From assembly GCF_003790525.1 (NCBI RefSeq), contig NZ_CP033635.1: a stretch of 64,000 bases of DNA. One strand, 5' to 3'. This document shows positions 24,197-29,805 of this stretch, piece by piece. The translations under genes and the position numbers were made by a program. This stretch comes from Escherichia coli. GTDB taxonomy: Bacteria; Pseudomonadota; Gammaproteobacteria; Enterobacterales; Enterobacteriaceae. Within the stretch, counting starts at the first letter, position 1. The number at the start of each line of letters is the position of its first letter. The notes beneath the pieces are model-generated. The model worked only from the letters and a program-made list of their open reading frames with translations, had not been told where the DNA came from and ran no database searches.

Positions 24197-26290
24197 TTAG
24201 ACCAACGCGCTCTCCATCTGTTTTTCAAATGCCTGACGAATTAATCCCATAACGTAAGGAAGTTGTGCGAGGTCGCTGAAACCAATTTCCACATCACCAT
24301 TGCCCCAGCGCCCAACATTTGTCACATCTTTGGCAATACCTTTCGGATCGACCAGTTCATGAAACTGCATATTAAGCGACAATCGCAGTCGGCTTTTTTG
24401 CGGCACAACATCAACAAAATTCGTTTCCGCTTTAAACGCAATATAGAGCTTCAATACTTCCTGCGTGATCCCTGCGTCCAGGCGCATAACTTCATCGCGA
24501 AGATGATCAAATAACACCCGGCTATGCGAACCATCAGCAAGAAAAGGATAATCACTCAGGCTATAACTGGTTTTGTTTTCAGGCTGCGCCCGATAAACAG
24601 CTAAAACCTCTTCAGGAAGAGCAGGCGCTTGCCAGACCTGAACCGCGAGATCGGCCAGACGATCGGCACGGGCGCGAATGGCGGCTTCATCCCATTTTTC
24701 GCACTGTCCAAGACCGATATTCAAATAAAGCGGGCTATGCTTAAAGCCGTCTTCAATATCGCGTTTTTCCGCGAAAGGTCTGTCACTGTAGCGGGAGTTA
24801 TAGCGCGTTAATGTGAGATTCCCCAACGTATGTAACAGTTCTTTATGCACACGCTGCCAGTCGCTTCCCAGCTCTTCACGCCATTTAGCCGACAAATTTT
24901 CGTTCTGCGGCATAATATGCTCAATCGTAAACTCTTCCACGCGCTCTCTGCGTTTATCGTTTTCCAGTCGTCGTAACCAGTAGCTGCGACTGCGGAAGTT
25001 ATAGAGATCGCGAACTTTTAATTCCCGTTTAAATTCATCATCGTTGGGGAAACGACGATATGAAGGCAGATTCAGAAAATGTACCTGAATACTTTCCAGA
25101 TATTTTTCTTTAATAATGACCTTATAAAAGGTAGCAAACGTCTTGTTAAGAGAATTTGTCGGAATCGCACATACTGCACGGCGGAAAACATAAGATTCAA
25201 TTAAACGAATTATGCTCAGGAAATCTTCGTGAGGCAAATCGCCATTTTTATAGTCATGATAAAGCGCCAGTAAGAAAGGATACGCCACATCGACCTTTAA
25301 CTCGCGCAAATCCTGAAAAGCCGTAGCAAGCGATTTGTCACTTTCTTTACCCAATGCCATTGCACAGTAATACTCCGCGTAGATGTGAATATCTTCAACC
25401 AGGTGATCCACGCCTTTTTCAGCAACACTCTGGCTGCGGGCATGGAGTTTAAATGCCTCATAGACTTCATCTGTACGAGGGATCTCCCCCGTTTTTACCG
25501 TCAGATAATGACGCATAAAGCTGTCAAAATATTCGCTGTAACCTTGCTGACCAAAAGCGACTTCCATTGGACGCCAGTGATCTTCATACAACCGGGTTTG
25601 ATGCTCTGGTTCGAGACCCATCAGAATAAAATTGCGCACCAGATCGGCCTGACTTAACGCCTTACCGGTAGAGTTCATACTTTCAAAAATCAGTTGCGGA
25701 TTATCCTGACCACGATTAAGCGCCACATCGACAATTAATAATTTTGCTAACCCACGACATAAGGGGATCAAGTCATCACCGAGTTTGGCAATTTGCTCAT
25801 CAAAGAAAGTAAAGTTTTCCATTATTCGATGGGAATAGTTTTCTGGCATTGGTCTTTGTTTTATTAACGCCAGCAAACTGTCTTTATCAGTCTCGGTCAG
25901 CAGTAATTTAAATCCTTTCTCGCCGGACTCATAAGGATTGAGTAAATAATAATTACGCAATTTCATTGCTGAAAAGCCATCAAAAACTTCGTCTTCGCCA
26001 AGATGACGCGATAAAGCCTCAATCAGCAACATTGCGGTCGTCAGCCTTTGTTGACCATCAATGACCAGTAACGGAGAAATACCAGAAACCTGATACAACC
26101 CCTGCTCAATATAAACAACCGAACCGATAAAATGCGCTGATATATCGTCACGCTTTCCGGCACGAATGATGTCGTCCCAAAGTTGCCGACATTGTTGTTC
26201 TGTCCATGAATAAGTCCGTTGATAAATGGGAATCACAAACTGCTGCGAACGTTTTAAAAAATCGAGTAGGCGGGCTTCTGTAGCTTTCAT
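24197..26290 (-). CDS. DUF262 (ParB-like NTPase) + DUF1524 (His-Me finger nuclease) protein: GmrSD-family type IV restriction-type enzyme
   Basis: 697 aa; DUF262 signature LVIDGQQRLTT near N-terminus; C-terminal HNH-like block EHIMPQN ... LHTLGNLTL; occupies the mcrBC side of the immigration control region. Confidence 0.8.
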   Translation of the reverse strand: MKATEARLLDFLKRSQQFVIPIYQRTYSWTEQQCRQLWDDIIRAGKRDDISAHFIGSVVYIEQGLYQVSGISPLLVIDGQQRLTTAMLLIEALSRHLGEDEVFDGFSAMKLRNYYLLNPYESGEKGFKLLLTETDKDSLLALIKQRPMPENYSHRIMENFTFFDEQIAKLGDDLIPLCRGLAKLLIVDVALNRGQDNPQLIFESMNSTGKALSQADLVRNFILMGLEPEHQTRLYEDHWRPMEVAFGQQGYSEYFDSFMRHYLTVKTGEIPRTDEVYEAFKLHARSQSVAEKGVDHLVEDIHIYAEYYCAMALGKESDKSLATAFQDLRELKVDVAYPFLLALYHDYKNGDLPHEDFLSIIRLIESYVFRRAVCAIPTNSLNKTFATFYKVIIKEKYLESIQVHFLNLPSYRRFPNDDEFKRELKVRDLYNFRSRSYWLRRLENDKRRERVEEFTIEHIMPQNENLSAKWREELGSDWQRVHKELLHTLGNLTLTRYNSRYSDRPFAEKRDIEDGFKHSPLYLNIGLGQCEKWDEAAIRARADRLADLAVQVWQAPALPEEVLAVYRAQPENKTSYSLSDYPFLADGSHSRVLFDHLRDEVMRLDAGITQEVLKLYIAFKAETNFVDVVPQKSRLRLSLNMQFHELVDPKGIAKDVTNVGRWGNGDVEIGFSDLAQLPYVMGLIRQAFEKQMESALV

Positions 26291-26386
26291 TCTGACGTCT
26301 TTCCGTGAAGCGATGATTTCGCAATAATAACCACTTCCTTGTGGAGGTTATAGAGAAATCCTGTTTATCCGCGACGAACTGCCCCA

Positions 26387-26551
26387 TCACTCCACATCCT
26401 CCCTGCGTAACCCAATATCCCTCAACCGCTCATCACTCATCTGCTGTAACACCCGCCGGGCCTGCATTTGCCGCCGCCAACGCCTCACTGCCTGCCAGAG
26501 TTGCACAAGTCCAATAAACGGTGCTTTAGCTTTGTTTTCGTGAAATTCCAT
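26387..26551 (-). CDS. yjiS: YjiS, DUF1127 small protein
   Basis: Hand-translated 54-aa ORF (below the track cutoff): MEFHENKAKAPFIGLVQLWQAVRRWRRQMQARRVLQQMSDERLRDIGLRREDVE; recognised as K-12 YjiS. Confidence 0.8.
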   Translation of the reverse strand: MEFHENKAKAPFIGLVQLWQAVRRWRRQMQARRVLQQMSDERLRDIGLRREDVE

Positions 26552-26727
26552 CTGCTGCCTCCTCATCTTTCAGAGGCTTCATCATCCGCCTTCTGGCAGT
26601 TCACAATACAGATGCAAATATTAGTTTTATTTAACATACAGACAGGTTAAAACAGCATCTGCATCCGGTTTTTTAGCCTCATCTGTACCGGTTTTTCTCT
26701 CTGTATGGTCCAAATAAGGAATACAGC

Positions 26728-28140
26728 ATGACGCGTTATCAACATCTGGCGACTTTGCTTGCCGAGCGGATTGAGCAAGGGCTGTATCGTCACGGGGAGA
26801 AATTGCCGTCGGTGCGCAGCTTAAGTCAGGAGCACGGCGTCAGCATCAGTACCGTGCAGCAGGCGTACCAGACGCTGGAAACGATGAAGCTCATCACTCC
26901 GCAGCCGCGTTCGGGTTATTTTGTCGCACAACGTAAAGCCCAGCCGCCAGTACCGCCGATGACGCGTCCGGTGCAGCGCCCGGTGGAAATTACCCAGTGG
27001 GATCAGGTGCTGGATATGCTGGAGGCGCATAGCGACAGTTCCATTGTTCCGTTAAGTAAAAGCACGCCGGATGTCGAAACGCCCAGCCTGAAACCGCTGT
27101 GGCGGGAGCTAAGCCGGGTGGTGCAGCATAATCTGCAAACCGTTCTCGGTTATGACTTGTTAGCCGGCCAGCGGGTATTGCGCGAGCAGATTGCCCGCCT
27201 GATGCTCGACAGCGGCTCGGTGGTCACCGCCGATGACATCATCATCACCAGCGGCTGCCATAACTCGATGTCGCTGGCGTTGATGGCAGTGTGTAAACCG
27301 GGCGATATTGTCGCGGTCGAATCCCCCTGTTATTACGGTTCGATGCAGATGCTGCGCGGCATGGGCGTGAAAGTGATTGAAATCCCCACCGATCCAGAAA
27401 CAGGCATCAGCGTTGAAGCGCTGGAACTGGCGCTGGAGCAGTGGCCGATTAAAGGCATCATTCTGGTGCCAAACTGTAATAATCCGCTGGGATTTATTAT
27501 GCCGGACGCGCGCAAACGGGCCGTTCTCTCTCTCGCTCAGCGTCATGATATTGTGATTTTTGAAGATGATGTCTACGGCGAACTGGCGACGGAGTATCCG
27601 CGCCCGCGGACCATTCATTCCTGGGATATCGACGGGCGAGTGCTGTTGTGCAGCTCGTTCAGTAAAAGTATTGCTCCAGGCCTGCGCGTGGGTTGGGTCG
27701 CACCGGGGCGCTATCACGATAAACTGCTGCATATGAAATATGCCATCAGCAGCTTTAATGTGCCGTCCACGCAAATGGCGGCGGCAACGTTTGTGCTGGA
27801 AGGTCACTATCATCGCCATATCCGGCGGATGCGGCAGATCTATCAGCGCAATTTGGCGCTTTATACCTGCTGGATACGGGAATATTTTCCCTGCGAAATC
27901 TGTATTACGCGCCCGAAAGGCGGATTTTTACTGTGGATCGAATTGCCTGAACAGGTCGATATGGTTTGCGTTGCGCGGCAGCTATACCGCATGAAAATCC
28001 AGGTGGCGGCAGGCTCGATTTTCTCAGCTTCCGGCAAATACCGTAATTGTCTGCGCATCAACTGCGCTTTGCCGCTCAGCGAAACCTATCGCGAAGCACT
28101 GAAGCAAATTGGCGAAGCCGTGTATCGGGCAATGGAATGA
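26728..28140 (+). CDS. yjiR: MocR-family regulator (GntR HTH fused to aminotransferase-like domain)
   Basis: 470 aa; N-terminal GntR HTH, large PLP-fold C-terminal domain; synteny. Confidence 0.9.
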   Translation: MTRYQHLATLLAERIEQGLYRHGEKLPSVRSLSQEHGVSISTVQQAYQTLETMKLITPQPRSGYFVAQRKAQPPVPPMTRPVQRPVEITQWDQVLDMLEAHSDSSIVPLSKSTPDVETPSLKPLWRELSRVVQHNLQTVLGYDLLAGQRVLREQIARLMLDSGSVVTADDIIITSGCHNSMSLALMAVCKPGDIVAVESPCYYGSMQMLRGMGVKVIEIPTDPETGISVEALELALEQWPIKGIILVPNCNNPLGFIMPDARKRAVLSLAQRHDIVIFEDDVYGELATEYPRPRTIHSWDIDGRVLLCSSFSKSIAPGLRVGWVAPGRYHDKLLHMKYAISSFNVPSTQMAAATFVLEGHYHRHIRRMRQIYQRNLALYTCWIREYFPCEICITRPKGGFLLWIELPEQVDMVCVARQLYRMKIQVAAGSIFSASGKYRNCLRINCALPLSETYREALKQIGEAVYRAME

Positions 28141-28326
28141 ATTCGAAATAGTGGCGAGCCCCCTGATTTCCTCTCACGAATAGCGTGTGACTCGTTTTAT
28201 CTTTGCAGGGTCATCTCCACGTTCCAGCATGGCTTAGGCAAAATGCGCTTCGTTCATGCCGGATGCCATGTGAACACCTTACCAGGTCTACAAAATCTTT
28301 AAAATTCAATATATTTAATGGGTTAT

Positions 28327-28355
28327 GTAGACCTGATAAGCGTAGCGCATCAGGC
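28327..28355. repeat. REP (repetitive extragenic palindromic) element
   Basis: gtagacctgataagcgtagcgcatcaggc resembles the REP consensus (...GCCTGATGCG...CTTATCAGGCCTAC); a partial second copy (caggtctaca) lies about 35 nt upstream. Confidence 0.6.
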
Positions 28356-28382
28356 TGCTTTGCGTTTGTCATCAGTCTCTGA

Positions 28383-29339
28383 TTAGTACTCGATCCATGG
28401 ATCGCGCTTGCTTTCAGGCAAGGGCTGCTCTAATGCCTGCATTTGCTCTGCCGAAAGTCCGGTATATCGTTGTATCCATTCAGGATCCGCCCCATTCTGC
28501 AACAACAATCGGAGGAGGCTCTTTTCCCCTTCTTCTTTCCCTTCTTTCCTCCCCCTCTCCCTTCCCAACAGCCATCCATCATTATGAATTCGCTCTGCAA
28601 TCGTCATTATTCGCTCCCTGTGTTGTGGCATTCGACGGATAAGTTCGCTGATAAACTCATTAAAACGCGCTTCATCGCCAGTCAGTAAAATGTAATTTAA
28701 CAGCGCGGTTATCTGGCTGTCATTAGCGCACCCTGTAACCAGTAATACTGCCAGTTGATCAATAAGCCCCATTAGATCGCGCTGGCGAATATGCTTTTGG
28801 ATCAACTCCAGCAGGGCGACTCTGCGATGCTGCACAATCTCGTCGTCTGGCACGACAGTGACATCCACCAGCGGGAACGCTGCGGTATAAAGCTTCCGCG
28901 CGGTAGCCGGGTCGGCAAATTCATCCAGCCAGCACAAAGACCAGGGGTAAGGACTACGGCTACTGTGATAAAACAGCATCGGGATGACCAGCGGTAGCGG
29001 CCGGCGTTTATCATGCTCGATATGGCGCTGCATCACCGCCATGGAATATCGCATCAGGCGAAAGGCCATATGGATATCCTCGCGGCTCTGATGTTCAATC
29101 ACCACATAAATATAGCCATCTCCTTCGCGGGTCTTTACCGACCACAGAATATCGGAATGTAGCGCCCGCAATTTTTCATCGACAAAGCTGGCGTATTCCA
29201 GTTTTAAGCTGTCGAGATCGCACAGTTCACGTAAATCTTTGGGTAAGTGGATCTCCATAAAATCCCGCGCGGTGTCAGGGTGGGTGAGAAAAGATTTAAA
29301 TAATGCGTCATGCGGCGTGCTGGTCGTGAAGTTTGTCAT
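28383..29339 (-). CDS. rpnD: Rpn-family recombination-promoting nuclease (PD-(D/E)xK, YhgA-like), intact
   Basis: 318-aa uninterrupted ORF recognised as YjiP/YjiQ (RpnD); acidic/lysine-rich C-terminal tail. Confidence 0.8.
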
Positions 29340-29805
29340 GGCGATCCGTCACCTGTAGATAAGATGGCCCGACTGTAGCGACTAACAAAACCATTCTCAC
29401 CCGGCAATTTCTCGTTCCCCGAGGTGCTTTCCAGGCTATTTTTGTTCCTCTGCAAACGATACATTTTTCCGGAAACAGGCTCGCGTTTTACATTTCCTGT
29501 ACCCGGCAGATATTCCCCTTTCCACCGCACTCTTTTGATTAACCGCAAATTTTAATTACACTTAAGGTGTATATTTTCTATGCAACCCATCAATTCAAGA
29601 GGTGTAATGTGCTGATGACTATTTGTAATCGTTATACATTCTGACCTGGAGTCAGAAGGTATTTCTCTGTCTGTGTGTTCACAGGCAGTGTGGTTGATTA
29701 CATGAAATTCAGTACATTTGCCCTTCTCGCCTGCCTTTCGTCATTACCGACGGTATTGAATTTCGTTTTCCCCATTGGGGTTCTCCGGACAAGGAGTTGT
29801 TTGTT

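Follow-up and report, generated by a model that had tools for sequence, protein, structure and literature searches.

The question raised by this locus is what a long run of pyrimidines does inside the coding region of an intact nuclease gene, rpnD of Escherichia coli. For the stretch of DNA analysed here (64,000 nucleotides, hereafter the window), an earlier note had proposed a slippage-prone and possibly triplex-forming tract at which the gene might be switched or inactivated. We consider it very likely that the run belongs to a toxin-antitoxin and antiphage module built as a gene within a gene, and that it forms the hypervariable region of four-amino-acid (12-nt) repeats in this module. As a variable Rpn repeat the tract is already known, and the case brings no new biology.

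Identity and genomic context of rpnD

The gene for the full-length toxin, rpnD_L (yjiP), occupies positions 28383..29339 on the minus strand and is an uninterrupted ORF of 318 aa for an Rpn-family PD-(D/E)XK nuclease. That it is intact, as the earlier note had stated, was borne out by the open frame, by Pfam and NCBIfam matches and by identity to a known product. The Pfam model Transposase_31/YhgA-like (PF04754) aligned to residues 8-210 with an E-value of 4.9e-85 and covered profile positions 1-202 of 203, which places the Transposase_31/PD-(D/E)XK nuclease domain at 28710..29318 (minus strand), while the NCBIfam Rpn family model TIGR01784 gave 168.9 bits (cutoff 52.1). The product is 100% identical to that of the E. 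coli SMS-3-5 gene for WP_000181181.1, and about 500 complete genomes, among them one of an O25b:H4-ST131 strain, carry a gene that matches this allele with at least 99% identity along its full length. The gene is located between mdtM and yjiR, with identical synteny in SMS-3-5 and in a K-12 strain, where the copy is a pseudogene; nucleotide identity to the K-12 pseudogene and K-12-type records is about 94% (93.7%). By sequence and position, the window gene is the ortholog of rpnD/yjiP.

Residues D11, D63, E82, Q84 and R94 (RpnA numbering) are functionally essential in RpnA (PMC5350276), and RpnD carries identical residues at these positions, together with a PDDE motif at 164-167; RpnA activity likewise depends on this motif, near residue 165. 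Judged from the sequence, the RpnD_L/RpnD_S pair of SMS-3-5 is intact and probably functional. A repaired K-12 RpnD was reported to be toxic, to induce the SOS response early, to raise RecA-independent recombination about 5-fold (4.7-fold) and to show 94% toxicity where recA was deleted (PMC4498929, PMC5350276). The overexpression and recombination experiment proposed in the earlier note has thus already been published for this repaired allele.

With respect to its surroundings, rpnD lies at the border of the immigration-control region and adjoins a GmrSD-type type IV restriction gene, symE and hsd remnants. The neighbouring ORF of 697 aa was called GmrSD/type IV restriction-like by PADLOC, and RpnD itself was unmatched in PADLOC 2.0.0 (2023 library). 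An Rfam scan of 26000-31000 gave no matches.

The pyrimidine tract and its repeat units

A pyrimidine run of about 60 nt had been claimed for 28500-28565. The run is real, but its perfect part comprises 48 nt at 28519..28566 on the plus strand (the coding strand being homopurine), and 28500..28518 (CAACAACAATCGGAGGAGG) is not rich in pyrimidines. It is the longest homopurine/homopyrimidine run of the window, with a segment score of 48 compared to at most 21 for any other segment, and by our own arithmetic a run of 48 nt would be expected by chance about 1e-9 times in 64 kb. The tract encodes G259-K273 of RpnD_L, which correspond to residues 15-29 of the short protein RpnD_S described below. 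This peptide opens the C-terminal domain and stands 45 residues ahead of the C-terminus; the tract does not encode a C-terminal tail, as had been assumed.

Read in codons, the tract consists of four degenerate 12-nt (4-aa) repeat units at 28518..28565 (minus strand), namely GGAAGGGAGAGG, GGGAGGAAAGAA, GGGAAAGAAGAA and GGGGAAAAGAGC. Codon table and allele alignments identify these units as the helix 1 hypervariable repeat, common to RpnD_L and RpnD_S. The unit follows the pattern G-[KR]-E-[EKR], glycine or charged residues only, and is encoded by purines throughout in the window allele. Tandem Repeats Finder (TRF) detected a period of 12 with 2.2 copies and 80% match, as well as a period of 9 with 2 copies. 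Runs of G5, G4 and A4 are present, and no homopolymer in the tract exceeds 5 nt.

Given the peptide and the codon usage of the window, an all-purine codon choice has a probability of only about 5e-6. It is very unlikely to follow from the peptide alone because rare codons are used (AGG three times, GGG and GGA). Such a tract invites the thought of unusual DNA structure, and the earlier note had suggested triplex or H-DNA. Its length and purity (48 bp, perfect) would suit this idea. However, intramolecular H-DNA requires mirror symmetry, and in the tract this symmetry is weak, since the best arms, of 10 nt, contain 1 mismatch and those free of mismatches are no longer than 4 nt. The terminator-like hairpins found in and beside the tract are weak as well (5-7 pairs) and lie inside the coding region.

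An internal start and the short protein RpnD_S

Within rpnD, an in-frame ATG (Met245) at 28605..28607 on the minus strand is preceded by the Shine-Dalgarno sequence AGGGAG at 28614..28619 (minus strand), 6 nt 5' of the internal ATG. Both elements are conserved in every allele compared, the latter as AGGGAG or AGAGAG. From this internal start, an in-frame ORF of 74 codons extends over 28383..28607 (minus strand); it would encode RpnD_S, a predicted antitoxin ending in ...WIEY. This gene within the gene, whose first helix is encoded by the tract, had been overlooked in the earlier note, and the PGAP and RefSeq annotations of rpnD list the long product only.

Ribo-RET peaks at in-frame internal start sites were observed in all five rpn genes (bioRxiv 10.1101/520783), and for K-12 rpnD internal translation was demonstrated by Ribo-RET/Onc112 profiling and SPA tagging, with RpnD_S detected (PMC10400941; bioRxiv 10.1101/520783). 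The proven internal start of RpnA is Met244, and an internal transcription start was reported in all rpn genes (PMC10400941). In the window, a candidate internal promoter for a short rpnD_S transcript is found at 28694..28723 (minus strand), comprising ATGACA, an 18-nt spacer and TAAATT. A TG precedes the -10 hexamer (extended -10) and both hexamers are invariant in 8/8 alleles compared, although the consensus scan that delivered the candidate found 3 sites where 1.9 were expected by chance.

The repeats of RpnD_S begin at its residue 15, after the internal Met, and Rpn repeats start 8-20 residues past the initiating Met (Zhong et al. 2023, PMC10400941). Free-standing ORFs of the RpnD_S type have been called elsewhere at 62, 66, 70 and 74 aa in a large protein database. 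A homologue search with the C-terminal 93 aa returned fragments and short ORFs only; it illustrates the diversity of repeat number and is unfit as a census.

Length variation across E. coli

The variable segment lies between conserved anchors, ...CATAATGATGGA on one side and CGATTGTT...GCAGAA on the other. In 13 sequenced E. coli alleles it measures 27, 39, 51 or 63 nt, giving proteins of 306, 310, 314 and 318 aa. The steps are always 12 nt or 4 aa, corresponding to 0, 1, 2 or 3 extra units, and the window allele belongs to the longest E. coli class (63 nt, 318 aa), three units above the K-12-type allele. Natural alleles with 0, 1, 2 and 3 extra units are those of K-12/UTI89, F765, G6/7 and SMS-3-5, respectively. 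The length variability between strains that the earlier note had expected is therefore supported.

In total, 4,242 E. coli genomes carry rpnD. Counts by identity band from short allele-specific BLAST queries were confounded by partial matches, in that partial 34-nt matches scored as at least 99%; therefore, evenly spaced rows spread over the matches were taken as the sample. In a systematic sample of 60 of the 4,242 rows, match lengths assigned about 22, 16, 5 and 16 rows to the classes of 63, 51, 39 and 27 nt, respectively, and further samples were consistent with this. Each of the four lengths is common in E. coli. A related metagenomic allele (L014) has a variable segment of 87 nt with 5 extra units; it was ruled out as belonging to E. 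coli, whose genomes match it at 82% identity at best. Anatomy, conservation and in-frame variation of the rpnD tract in the population are thus matters of direct observation.

The allele comparison bears on the H-DNA idea as well, according to which the run would form an intramolecular triplex that regulates rpnD transcription or drives repeat expansion and contraction. The tract is the only 48-bp perfect homopurine/homopyrimidine sequence of the window, its codon choice is improbable from the peptide, and the mechanism of dodecamer expansion is given as unknown by Zhong et al. (PMC10400941). However, the perfect purine run is limited to the window-type allele, while other alleles that vary just as much are interrupted by ATG, GTA or CGG codons. 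The 5-unit metagenomic allele uses GGT, TGC and GAT codons in its repeats, and the repeats of other Rpn paralogs include hydrophobic codons, e.g., KGIE in RpnC; the repeats can therefore vary without homopurine DNA. Together with the weak mirror symmetry, this makes a role of H-DNA quite improbable. Nothing that we saw suggests that a need for non-B DNA lies behind the all-purine composition.

Inactivated alleles

In several lineages rpnD is a pseudogene, which would fit a contingency locus, where replication slippage in the tract shifts the frame and toggles a genotoxic nuclease. The low complexity of the tract with its G5, G4 and A4 runs is in line with such a switch. So are rare frameshifted variants at such runs in a large protein database (P0046, P0050, P0055, P0057 and P0058, each represented by 1-3 sequences), for example a G4-to-G3 deletion seen in both an NCBI assembly and a Logan assembly. 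However, many of these rare singletons contain several indels, as is typical of assembly error. The common length classes are all multiples of 12 nt apart, none of about 140 systematically sampled genome rows showed an out-of-frame change of 1 or 2 nt in tract length, and about 500 genomes from a range of hosts share one exact 137-nt segment. Furthermore, known phase-variable repeats have longer homopolymers or less degenerate units than the rpnD tract, with its homopolymers of at most 5 nt and its degenerate units.

The disrupted alleles themselves argue against a switch, too. Five were sequenced through, and in 5/5 the lesion lies outside the tract: stops at codons 72 and 104, a frameshift near codon 133, a 25-bp duplication and an IS421 insertion. 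The duplication, in the O157:H7 allele, is upstream of the tract and the insertion just beyond it. The premature stop at codon 104 is that of K-12 rpnD, an allele of the 306-aa type whose variable segment of 27 nt holds no extra units. Judged by their reading frames, the K-12 and O157:H7 alleles are dead as toxins, and the antitoxin ORF is still open. Consequently, neither the switch by slippage nor the inactivation hotspot of the earlier note is supported, and we regard a contingency locus as exceedingly unlikely. Since the variation is strictly in frame, what changes is the length of a helix, and the gene is not switched off. The opposite outcome envisaged in the earlier note, an invariant tract with intact alleles elsewhere, did not apply either, as tract length varies and some strains are inactivated.

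Homology and predicted fold of the C-terminal domain

The C-terminal domain relates RpnD to the structurally characterized RpnA. A profile of RpnD_S alleles matched PDB entry 7TH0 (RpnA-S, a three-helix bundle) with an E-value of 0.0018, and in PDB sequence searches RpnD_S resembled this solved structure only weakly in sequence (E 0.002-0.03). Over the whole protein, the NCBIfam RpnA profile aligned to RpnD residues 3-304 at profile positions 3-291 of 292. PF27070 is listed for the RpnD C-terminal domain in a large protein database; when RpnD_S by itself was scanned against a Pfam copy that apparently lacks PF27070, noise alone was returned up to an E-value of 10. Homology to ankyrins was considered and rejected. 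Designed ankyrin repeats dominate the PDB sequence searches because one 19-residue stretch resembles the ankyrin consensus; the single stretches are each non-significant and are thus taken as motif resemblance, not homology.

In an AlphaFold2 model of RpnD_S (pLDDT 66), residues 3-16, 21-37, 42-49 and 53-59 are predicted to form the helices of a bundle. The tract region has the lowest confidence (pLDDT 54-63) and is predicted as helical except for a break at residues 17-20. In a Foldseek search of this low-confidence model against the PDB, 7TH0 ranked first, with a non-significant E-value of 1.9 and a TM-score of 0.53 normalised to the target.

One might argue from such a model that the tract encodes a neutral linker, a disordered Gly/Arg/Lys/Glu spacer between the nuclease and C-terminal domains whose length drifts without functional consequence. 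Low model confidence and the predicted break would fit this, as would a Gly at each fourth residue, which is unusual in a stable helix, and the frequent occurrence of each of the four length classes in E. coli. However, linker drift would permit 1-aa steps, whereas 4-aa steps alone are found. The position agrees with the repeat insertion point, which was mapped to helix 1 of the RpnA-S crystal structure, and one repeat added to RpnC_S or RpnC_L alone abolishes inhibition (PMC10400941). A neutral linker therefore appears very unlikely to us.

A gene-within-a-gene toxin-antitoxin module

In the Rpn family, one frame yields a full-length toxic RpnL and a small antitoxin RpnS, and the repeat in helix 1 sets L/S pairing (PMC10400941). 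Inhibition of the cognate RpnL by RpnS or protection from phages was shown for RpnA, RpnB, RpnC and RpnP2 (PMC10400941). For RpnD, inhibition of RpnD_L by RpnD_S is absent from the main text of that study, whose inhibition assays concern RpnA, RpnB and RpnC. By homology, we infer antitoxin activity of RpnD_S, specificity for repeat number and a function in phage defence.

Accepting the hypervariable repeat as the most plausible reading of the tract, the module would work as follows. From rpnD, the full-length PD-(D/E)XK DNA endonuclease RpnD_L (318 aa) would be produced, while the internal Shine-Dalgarno sequence and the Met245 ATG would give rise to the 74-aa RpnD_S, probably from its own shorter transcript. 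RpnD_S, identical in sequence to the C-terminal domain of RpnD_L, would bind RpnD_L via its long first helix and block the nuclease, in analogy to RpnA, RpnB and RpnC. The tract would fall in this first helix, so that each 12-nt unit gained or lost would add or remove four residues, about one turn. Since both proteins would be read from the same DNA, they would vary jointly and remain matched to each other, and they would be mismatched to Rpn proteins of other repeat number. The all-purine composition probably stems from the origin of the units, a dodecamer for G-[KR]-E-E made of purines only having been duplicated at the DNA level.

Comparison with known systems

The closest counterpart is K-12 RpnD (YjiP/YjiQ; repaired as 'yjiPc', Kingston et al. 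2015, 2017), which shares the mdtM-rpnD-yjiR locus, the nuclease residues and the internal start. It differs by its stop and its lack of extra units, whereas in the window allele the frame is open and three such units are present. RpnA_L/RpnA_S (Zhong et al. 2023; 7TH0) resembles RpnD in domain order, in the internal start (Met244 versus Met245) and in the insertion point on helix 1. However, RpnA is a paralog with a weakly similar C-terminal domain, K-12 RpnA lacks inserted repeats, and the biochemistry of nuclease inhibition and complex formation was done on RpnA, not on RpnD. RpnC_L/RpnC_S likewise possesses a variable number of 4-aa units shortly past the internal start, and for this pair L/S repeat matching was demonstrated experimentally. 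While its unit KGIE contains a hydrophobic residue, the RpnD unit consists of Gly and three charged residues and lacks the hydrophobic residue that is typical according to Zhong et al.

Outside the family, the TAEL repeats of HsdS in EcoR124I/EcoR124II are cited as an analogy by Zhong et al. (PMC10400941). There, too, the number of 12-nt (4-aa) repeats in a helix of a defence protein alters specificity. However, the proteins are unrelated, and the TAEL repeat sets the spacer length in DNA recognition, whereas the RpnD repeat is thought to set protein-protein pairing. Contingency loci of Neisseria, Haemophilus and Campylobacter share with rpnD an intragenic repetitive tract that differs in length between strains. 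Yet these consist of long perfect homopolymers or 2-7-nt units and shift the frame, while rpnD has degenerate 12-nt units and its common variants stay in frame.

Implications

The purine-only codons leave a clue toward a process at the DNA or RNA level that shaped the tract beyond selection on the protein, although we think that such a process is unlikely. In one possible form, slippage, triplex-assisted duplication or duplication initiated by the RpnD nuclease itself would multiply purine dodecamers and thereby create new RpnL/RpnS pairing specificities. In another possible form, rare AGG codons in a cluster, together with the Shine-Dalgarno-like GGAGG just 3' of the internal start, would tune the RpnS:RpnL ratio. 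If true, shaping at this level would offer a concrete handle on how dodecamer repeats expand and contract, a question left by Zhong et al.

For the hypervariable repeat itself, the meaning lies in annotation and in a natural experiment. A slippery-looking tract in a 'putative transposase' may turn out to be the repeat that determines specificity in an antiphage toxin-antitoxin pair whose two proteins share one reading frame. The repeat-matching model was so far tested only by one engineered repeat added to RpnC (PMC10400941), and the series of rpnD alleles with 0, 1, 2 and 3 extra units would provide a natural test set for it.

Identity of rpnD and of the Tract

The window gene at 28383..29339 (minus strand) is an ortholog of K-12 rpnD (yjiP) and belongs to the Rpn L/S family. 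The earlier note was right to call it intact, since its 318 codons run without interruption, residues 8-210 match Pfam Transposase_31/YhgA-like (E 4.9e-85), the protein scores above the NCBIfam Rpn-family threshold, mdtM and yjiR flank it at the same place as the K-12 pseudogene, and the residues essential in RpnA (D11, D63, E82, Q84), as well as R94 and the PDDE motif, which matter too (PMC5350276), are found at the same positions. The gene is 100% identical to that of E. coli SMS-3-5 (NC_010498.1 5002090-5003046). Between its stop codon and yjiR lies a REP-like imperfect palindrome, GACCTGATAAGCGTAGCGCATCAGGC (~28330..28365), that recurs, in variant forms, in most of the other alleles. M22546 and 21AH007 differ in that the sequence 3' of the stop is replaced and a truncated yjiR directly abuts rpnD.

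A pyrimidine run does exist within rpnD, but not one of about 60 nt as first described: it is a perfect 48-nt run on the plus strand (28519..28566), shorter and sharper, and the bases of 28500-28518, which are not pyrimidine-rich, fall outside it. Its segment score is 48, against at most 21 for the runner-up purine or pyrimidine segment in the whole 64 kb. The coding strand comprises 15 consecutive all-purine codons, G259-K273, which do not form the protein's tail but begin its C-terminal domain.

Fifteen codons upstream of the tract lies an internal in-frame ATG (Met245, 28607..28605, minus strand), preceded at 6 nt by the Shine-Dalgarno sequence AGGGAG and further upstream by a candidate promoter-like site (ATGACA, 18 nt, TAAATT, with TG; 28723..28694, minus strand). 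All three are conserved across every allele compared, and a 74-aa frame, RpnD_S, is open from Met245 (28607..28383, minus strand). Judged from its sequence, this layout is the arrangement of Zhong et al. (2023; PMC10400941), in which RpnS, the small product, binds RpnL, the toxic full-length nuclease, and inhibits it, while hypervariable four-amino-acid (dodecamer) repeats start 8-20 residues past the internal Met and are located in the long first helix, the dimer interface. The same authors detected RpnD_S in MG1655 (PMC10400941) and, independently, Ribo-RET revealed that each gene from rpnA to rpnE has an internal start in frame (bioRxiv 10.1101/520783).

Homology of the C-terminal domain to that of RpnA is weakly supported. 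The RpnA NCBIfam profile aligns with RpnD residues 3-304, reaching its own end, a profile of RpnD_S alleles matches 7TH0, the crystal structure of RpnA-S, at E 0.0018, and 7TH0 ranks top in Foldseek for the RpnD_S model, with a non-significant match. This AF2 model is helical (3-16, 21-37, 42-49, 53-59; pLDDT 66 overall, 54-63 in the tract). RpnD residues 267-285 (28484..28540, minus strand) closely resemble the ankyrin-repeat consensus AENGHKEIVKLLLSKGADPN; designed ankyrin proteins top PDB sequence searches via this segment, with no single stretch reaching significance, and the resemblance probably reflects convergence on a helix-turn motif. RpnD_S codons 16-20 (28550..28562, minus strand) read AGG GAG AGG GGG AGG, thus three AGG in five codons, accompanied by an SD-like GGAGG. 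Among the Arg codons of the window AGG is the least used (25/766), and this cluster together with GGAGG might affect translation of RpnD_L, the full-length product, and RpnD_S.

Length Classes and Allele Mosaicism

Of the 5,426 E. coli genomes that are complete, 4,242 carry rpnD. Thirteen alleles were fetched and aligned, and the variable segment was measured between ...GATGGA and CGATTG.... It falls into four classes with 12 nt at each step: 27 nt (GYIKGEQR; 306-aa type; K-12, M22546, SCU-111), 39 nt (GWLLG-REEG-EQR; 310 aa; F765, O157), 51 nt (GWLLG-MEKG-KEEG-EQR; 314 aa; G6/7) and 63 nt (peptide ending [E/V]EG-E[K/R]S; 318 aa; 504211, STEC306 and the window allele, which is therefore a member of the longest E. 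coli class). With classes assigned from match length for rows without fetched sequence, an evenly spaced 60-row sample held ~22 alleles of 63 nt, 16 of 51 nt, 5 of 39 nt and 16 of 27 nt, plus 1 partial match; two more 40-row samples were consistent with these frequencies. An exact match to the 137-nt segment of the window was seen in ~6 of 40 rows, equal to roughly 500 genomes, in agreement with 495 genomes whose entire gene is at least 99% identical. Five extra units are carried by a related metagenomic allele from outside E. coli, two perfect GGTAAAGAAGAA copies among them, and separately called RpnD_S-type ORFs of 62, 66, 70 and 74 aa are present in a large protein database.

Repeat number occurs with differing N-terminal backgrounds and C-terminal tails. 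One 2-unit and one 3-unit allele, for instance, share 99.1% identity across the first 700 nt. Such mixing points either to intragenic recombination or to repeat number having changed recurrently. The alleles are mosaic also in that three C-terminal tails (two being ...ERERYSWLKS and ...DREHDSWLES/Y) and RY/KI variants assort freely with repeat number. Divergence between allele groups amounts to 4-5% over the N-terminal 700 nt, a high value for a chromosomal gene of E. coli. Mosaicism and divergence together suggest recombination or diversifying selection beside the immigration control region.

Phase Variation and Purine Purity

The cross-genome comparison called for in the earlier note thus confirmed variable length (27/39/51/63 nt) but no out-of-frame change: none of ~140 sampled genome rows showed a tract-length difference that was not a multiple of 12. 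The tract was suspected to be slippage-prone and phase-variable, and a 5.8-billion-protein database indeed holds rare frameshifted variants at short G and A runs. However, each has 1-3 member sequences, several bear multiple indels, and one G4-to-G3 deletion was found in two assemblies; these variants are indistinguishable from assembly errors and negligible against the in-frame classes. Furthermore, the architecture is not that of a contingency locus, because the four 12-nt units of the window allele are degenerate (TRF 2.2 copies, 80% match) and its longest homopolymer does not exceed 5 nt.

All five disrupted alleles examined are likewise broken outside the tract. K-12 (JB41, L001 1501-2421) has the published stop at codon 104 (Kingston et al., 2015), Br_167 an internal stop at codon 72, and 20Ec-P-124 a 1-nt deletion near codon 133. 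In SW07091 (L010 ~1520-1580) an IS421 (IS4-like) insertion 2-3 nt beyond the 3' end of the tract (window ~28515) cuts the gene to 275 aa, a single case. O157:H7 Rafaela_II (L005 1133-1182), whose allele length is also seen in matches H38-H41, carries a 25-bp tandem duplication, ATGACGATTGCAGAGCGAATTCATA, directly upstream of the tract (window 28583..28607). It takes in the internal start codon and the first 8 codons and frameshifts RpnD_L, which stops after 260 aa and loses the C-terminal domain, while the second ATG copy restores a complete RpnD_S ORF, now not preceded by the Shine-Dalgarno sequence. In strain F765 this allele lacks the duplication and is intact at 310 aa. In K-12, Br_167 and the metagenomic 5-unit allele (L014 801-1766; two stops in the N-terminal domain, low-coverage contig) the nuclease part is dead and the RpnD_S ORF with its SD/ATG intact, so that an orphan antitoxin could have been kept after toxin loss in several lineages. 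Taken together, a phase-variable contingency locus is not supported.

Formation of H-DNA was also raised, and a perfect 48-nt homopurine/homopyrimidine run would be in its favor. An intramolecular triplex requires mirror symmetry, however, and the tract shows little of it, its arms reaching 10 nt with a mismatch and no more than 4 nt when perfect. Nor is purine purity conserved: among the alleles examined only that of the window has a perfect run, as GTA and CGG interrupt other 63-nt alleles, ATG interrupts the 51-nt alleles, and units of the 5-unit allele include GGT, TGC and GAT. Conservation applies instead to the 12-nt register. H-DNA may still form here, but nothing indicates it as the function, and this reading is not supported either. 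Given the peptide, the chance of 15/15 purine-only codons is ~5e-6 when codon usage is taken from 35 long ORFs of the window, where AGA and AGG make up 8% of Arg codons and GGA/GGG 31% of Gly codons; in the tract, AGG encodes Arg at three positions, and GGA or GGG encodes Gly at four. This codon choice argues that the composition was inherited at the DNA level from a purine-only dodecamer and does not follow from amino-acid composition alone.

The tract is hence a real feature, correctly spotted and already explained. That most strains have an intact yjiP and K-12 a stop was published in 2015 (Kingston et al., 2015), and the overexpression test proposed earlier had been carried out on repaired K-12 RpnD, which kills cells deleted for recA, triggers early SOS induction and increases RecA-independent recombination ~5-fold (PMC4498929, PMC5350276). 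Our small additions are the allele series with approximate frequencies, the place of the window allele in the longest E. coli class as sole carrier of a perfect 48-nt purine run among alleles examined, the sparing of the tract by the inactivating lesions examined, and the codon-usage case for its DNA-level origin.

Putative Mechanism and Defence Setting

In the most likely mechanism, RpnD_L is a toxic, non-specific PD-(D/E)XK endonuclease. RpnD_S, translated from the internal start and probably more abundant, would neutralise it through helix-helix pairing. The tract would set the length of the pairing helix and, because it is common to both products, a 12-nt gain or loss would alter both together. 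RpnD_L and RpnD_S would thereby stay matched while being shielded from Rpn proteins, whether paralogous or incoming, whose repeat number differs. Such specificity was demonstrated with RpnC (PMC10400941) and, by analogy, may hold for RpnD.

The adjoining DUF262/GmrSD-type ORF (24197..26290, minus strand; 697 aa, uninterrupted) was assigned by PADLOC to Orf5 (E 1.7e-222), HEC-06 and type IV methyl-directed restriction enzyme. RefSeq annotates this stretch of SMS-3-5 as two pieces, one a partial pseudogene, which looks like an annotation artefact. Since rpnD borders the immigration-control region, with this GmrSD-like type IV restriction gene, symE and hsd remnants nearby, its location is compatible with a role in defence.
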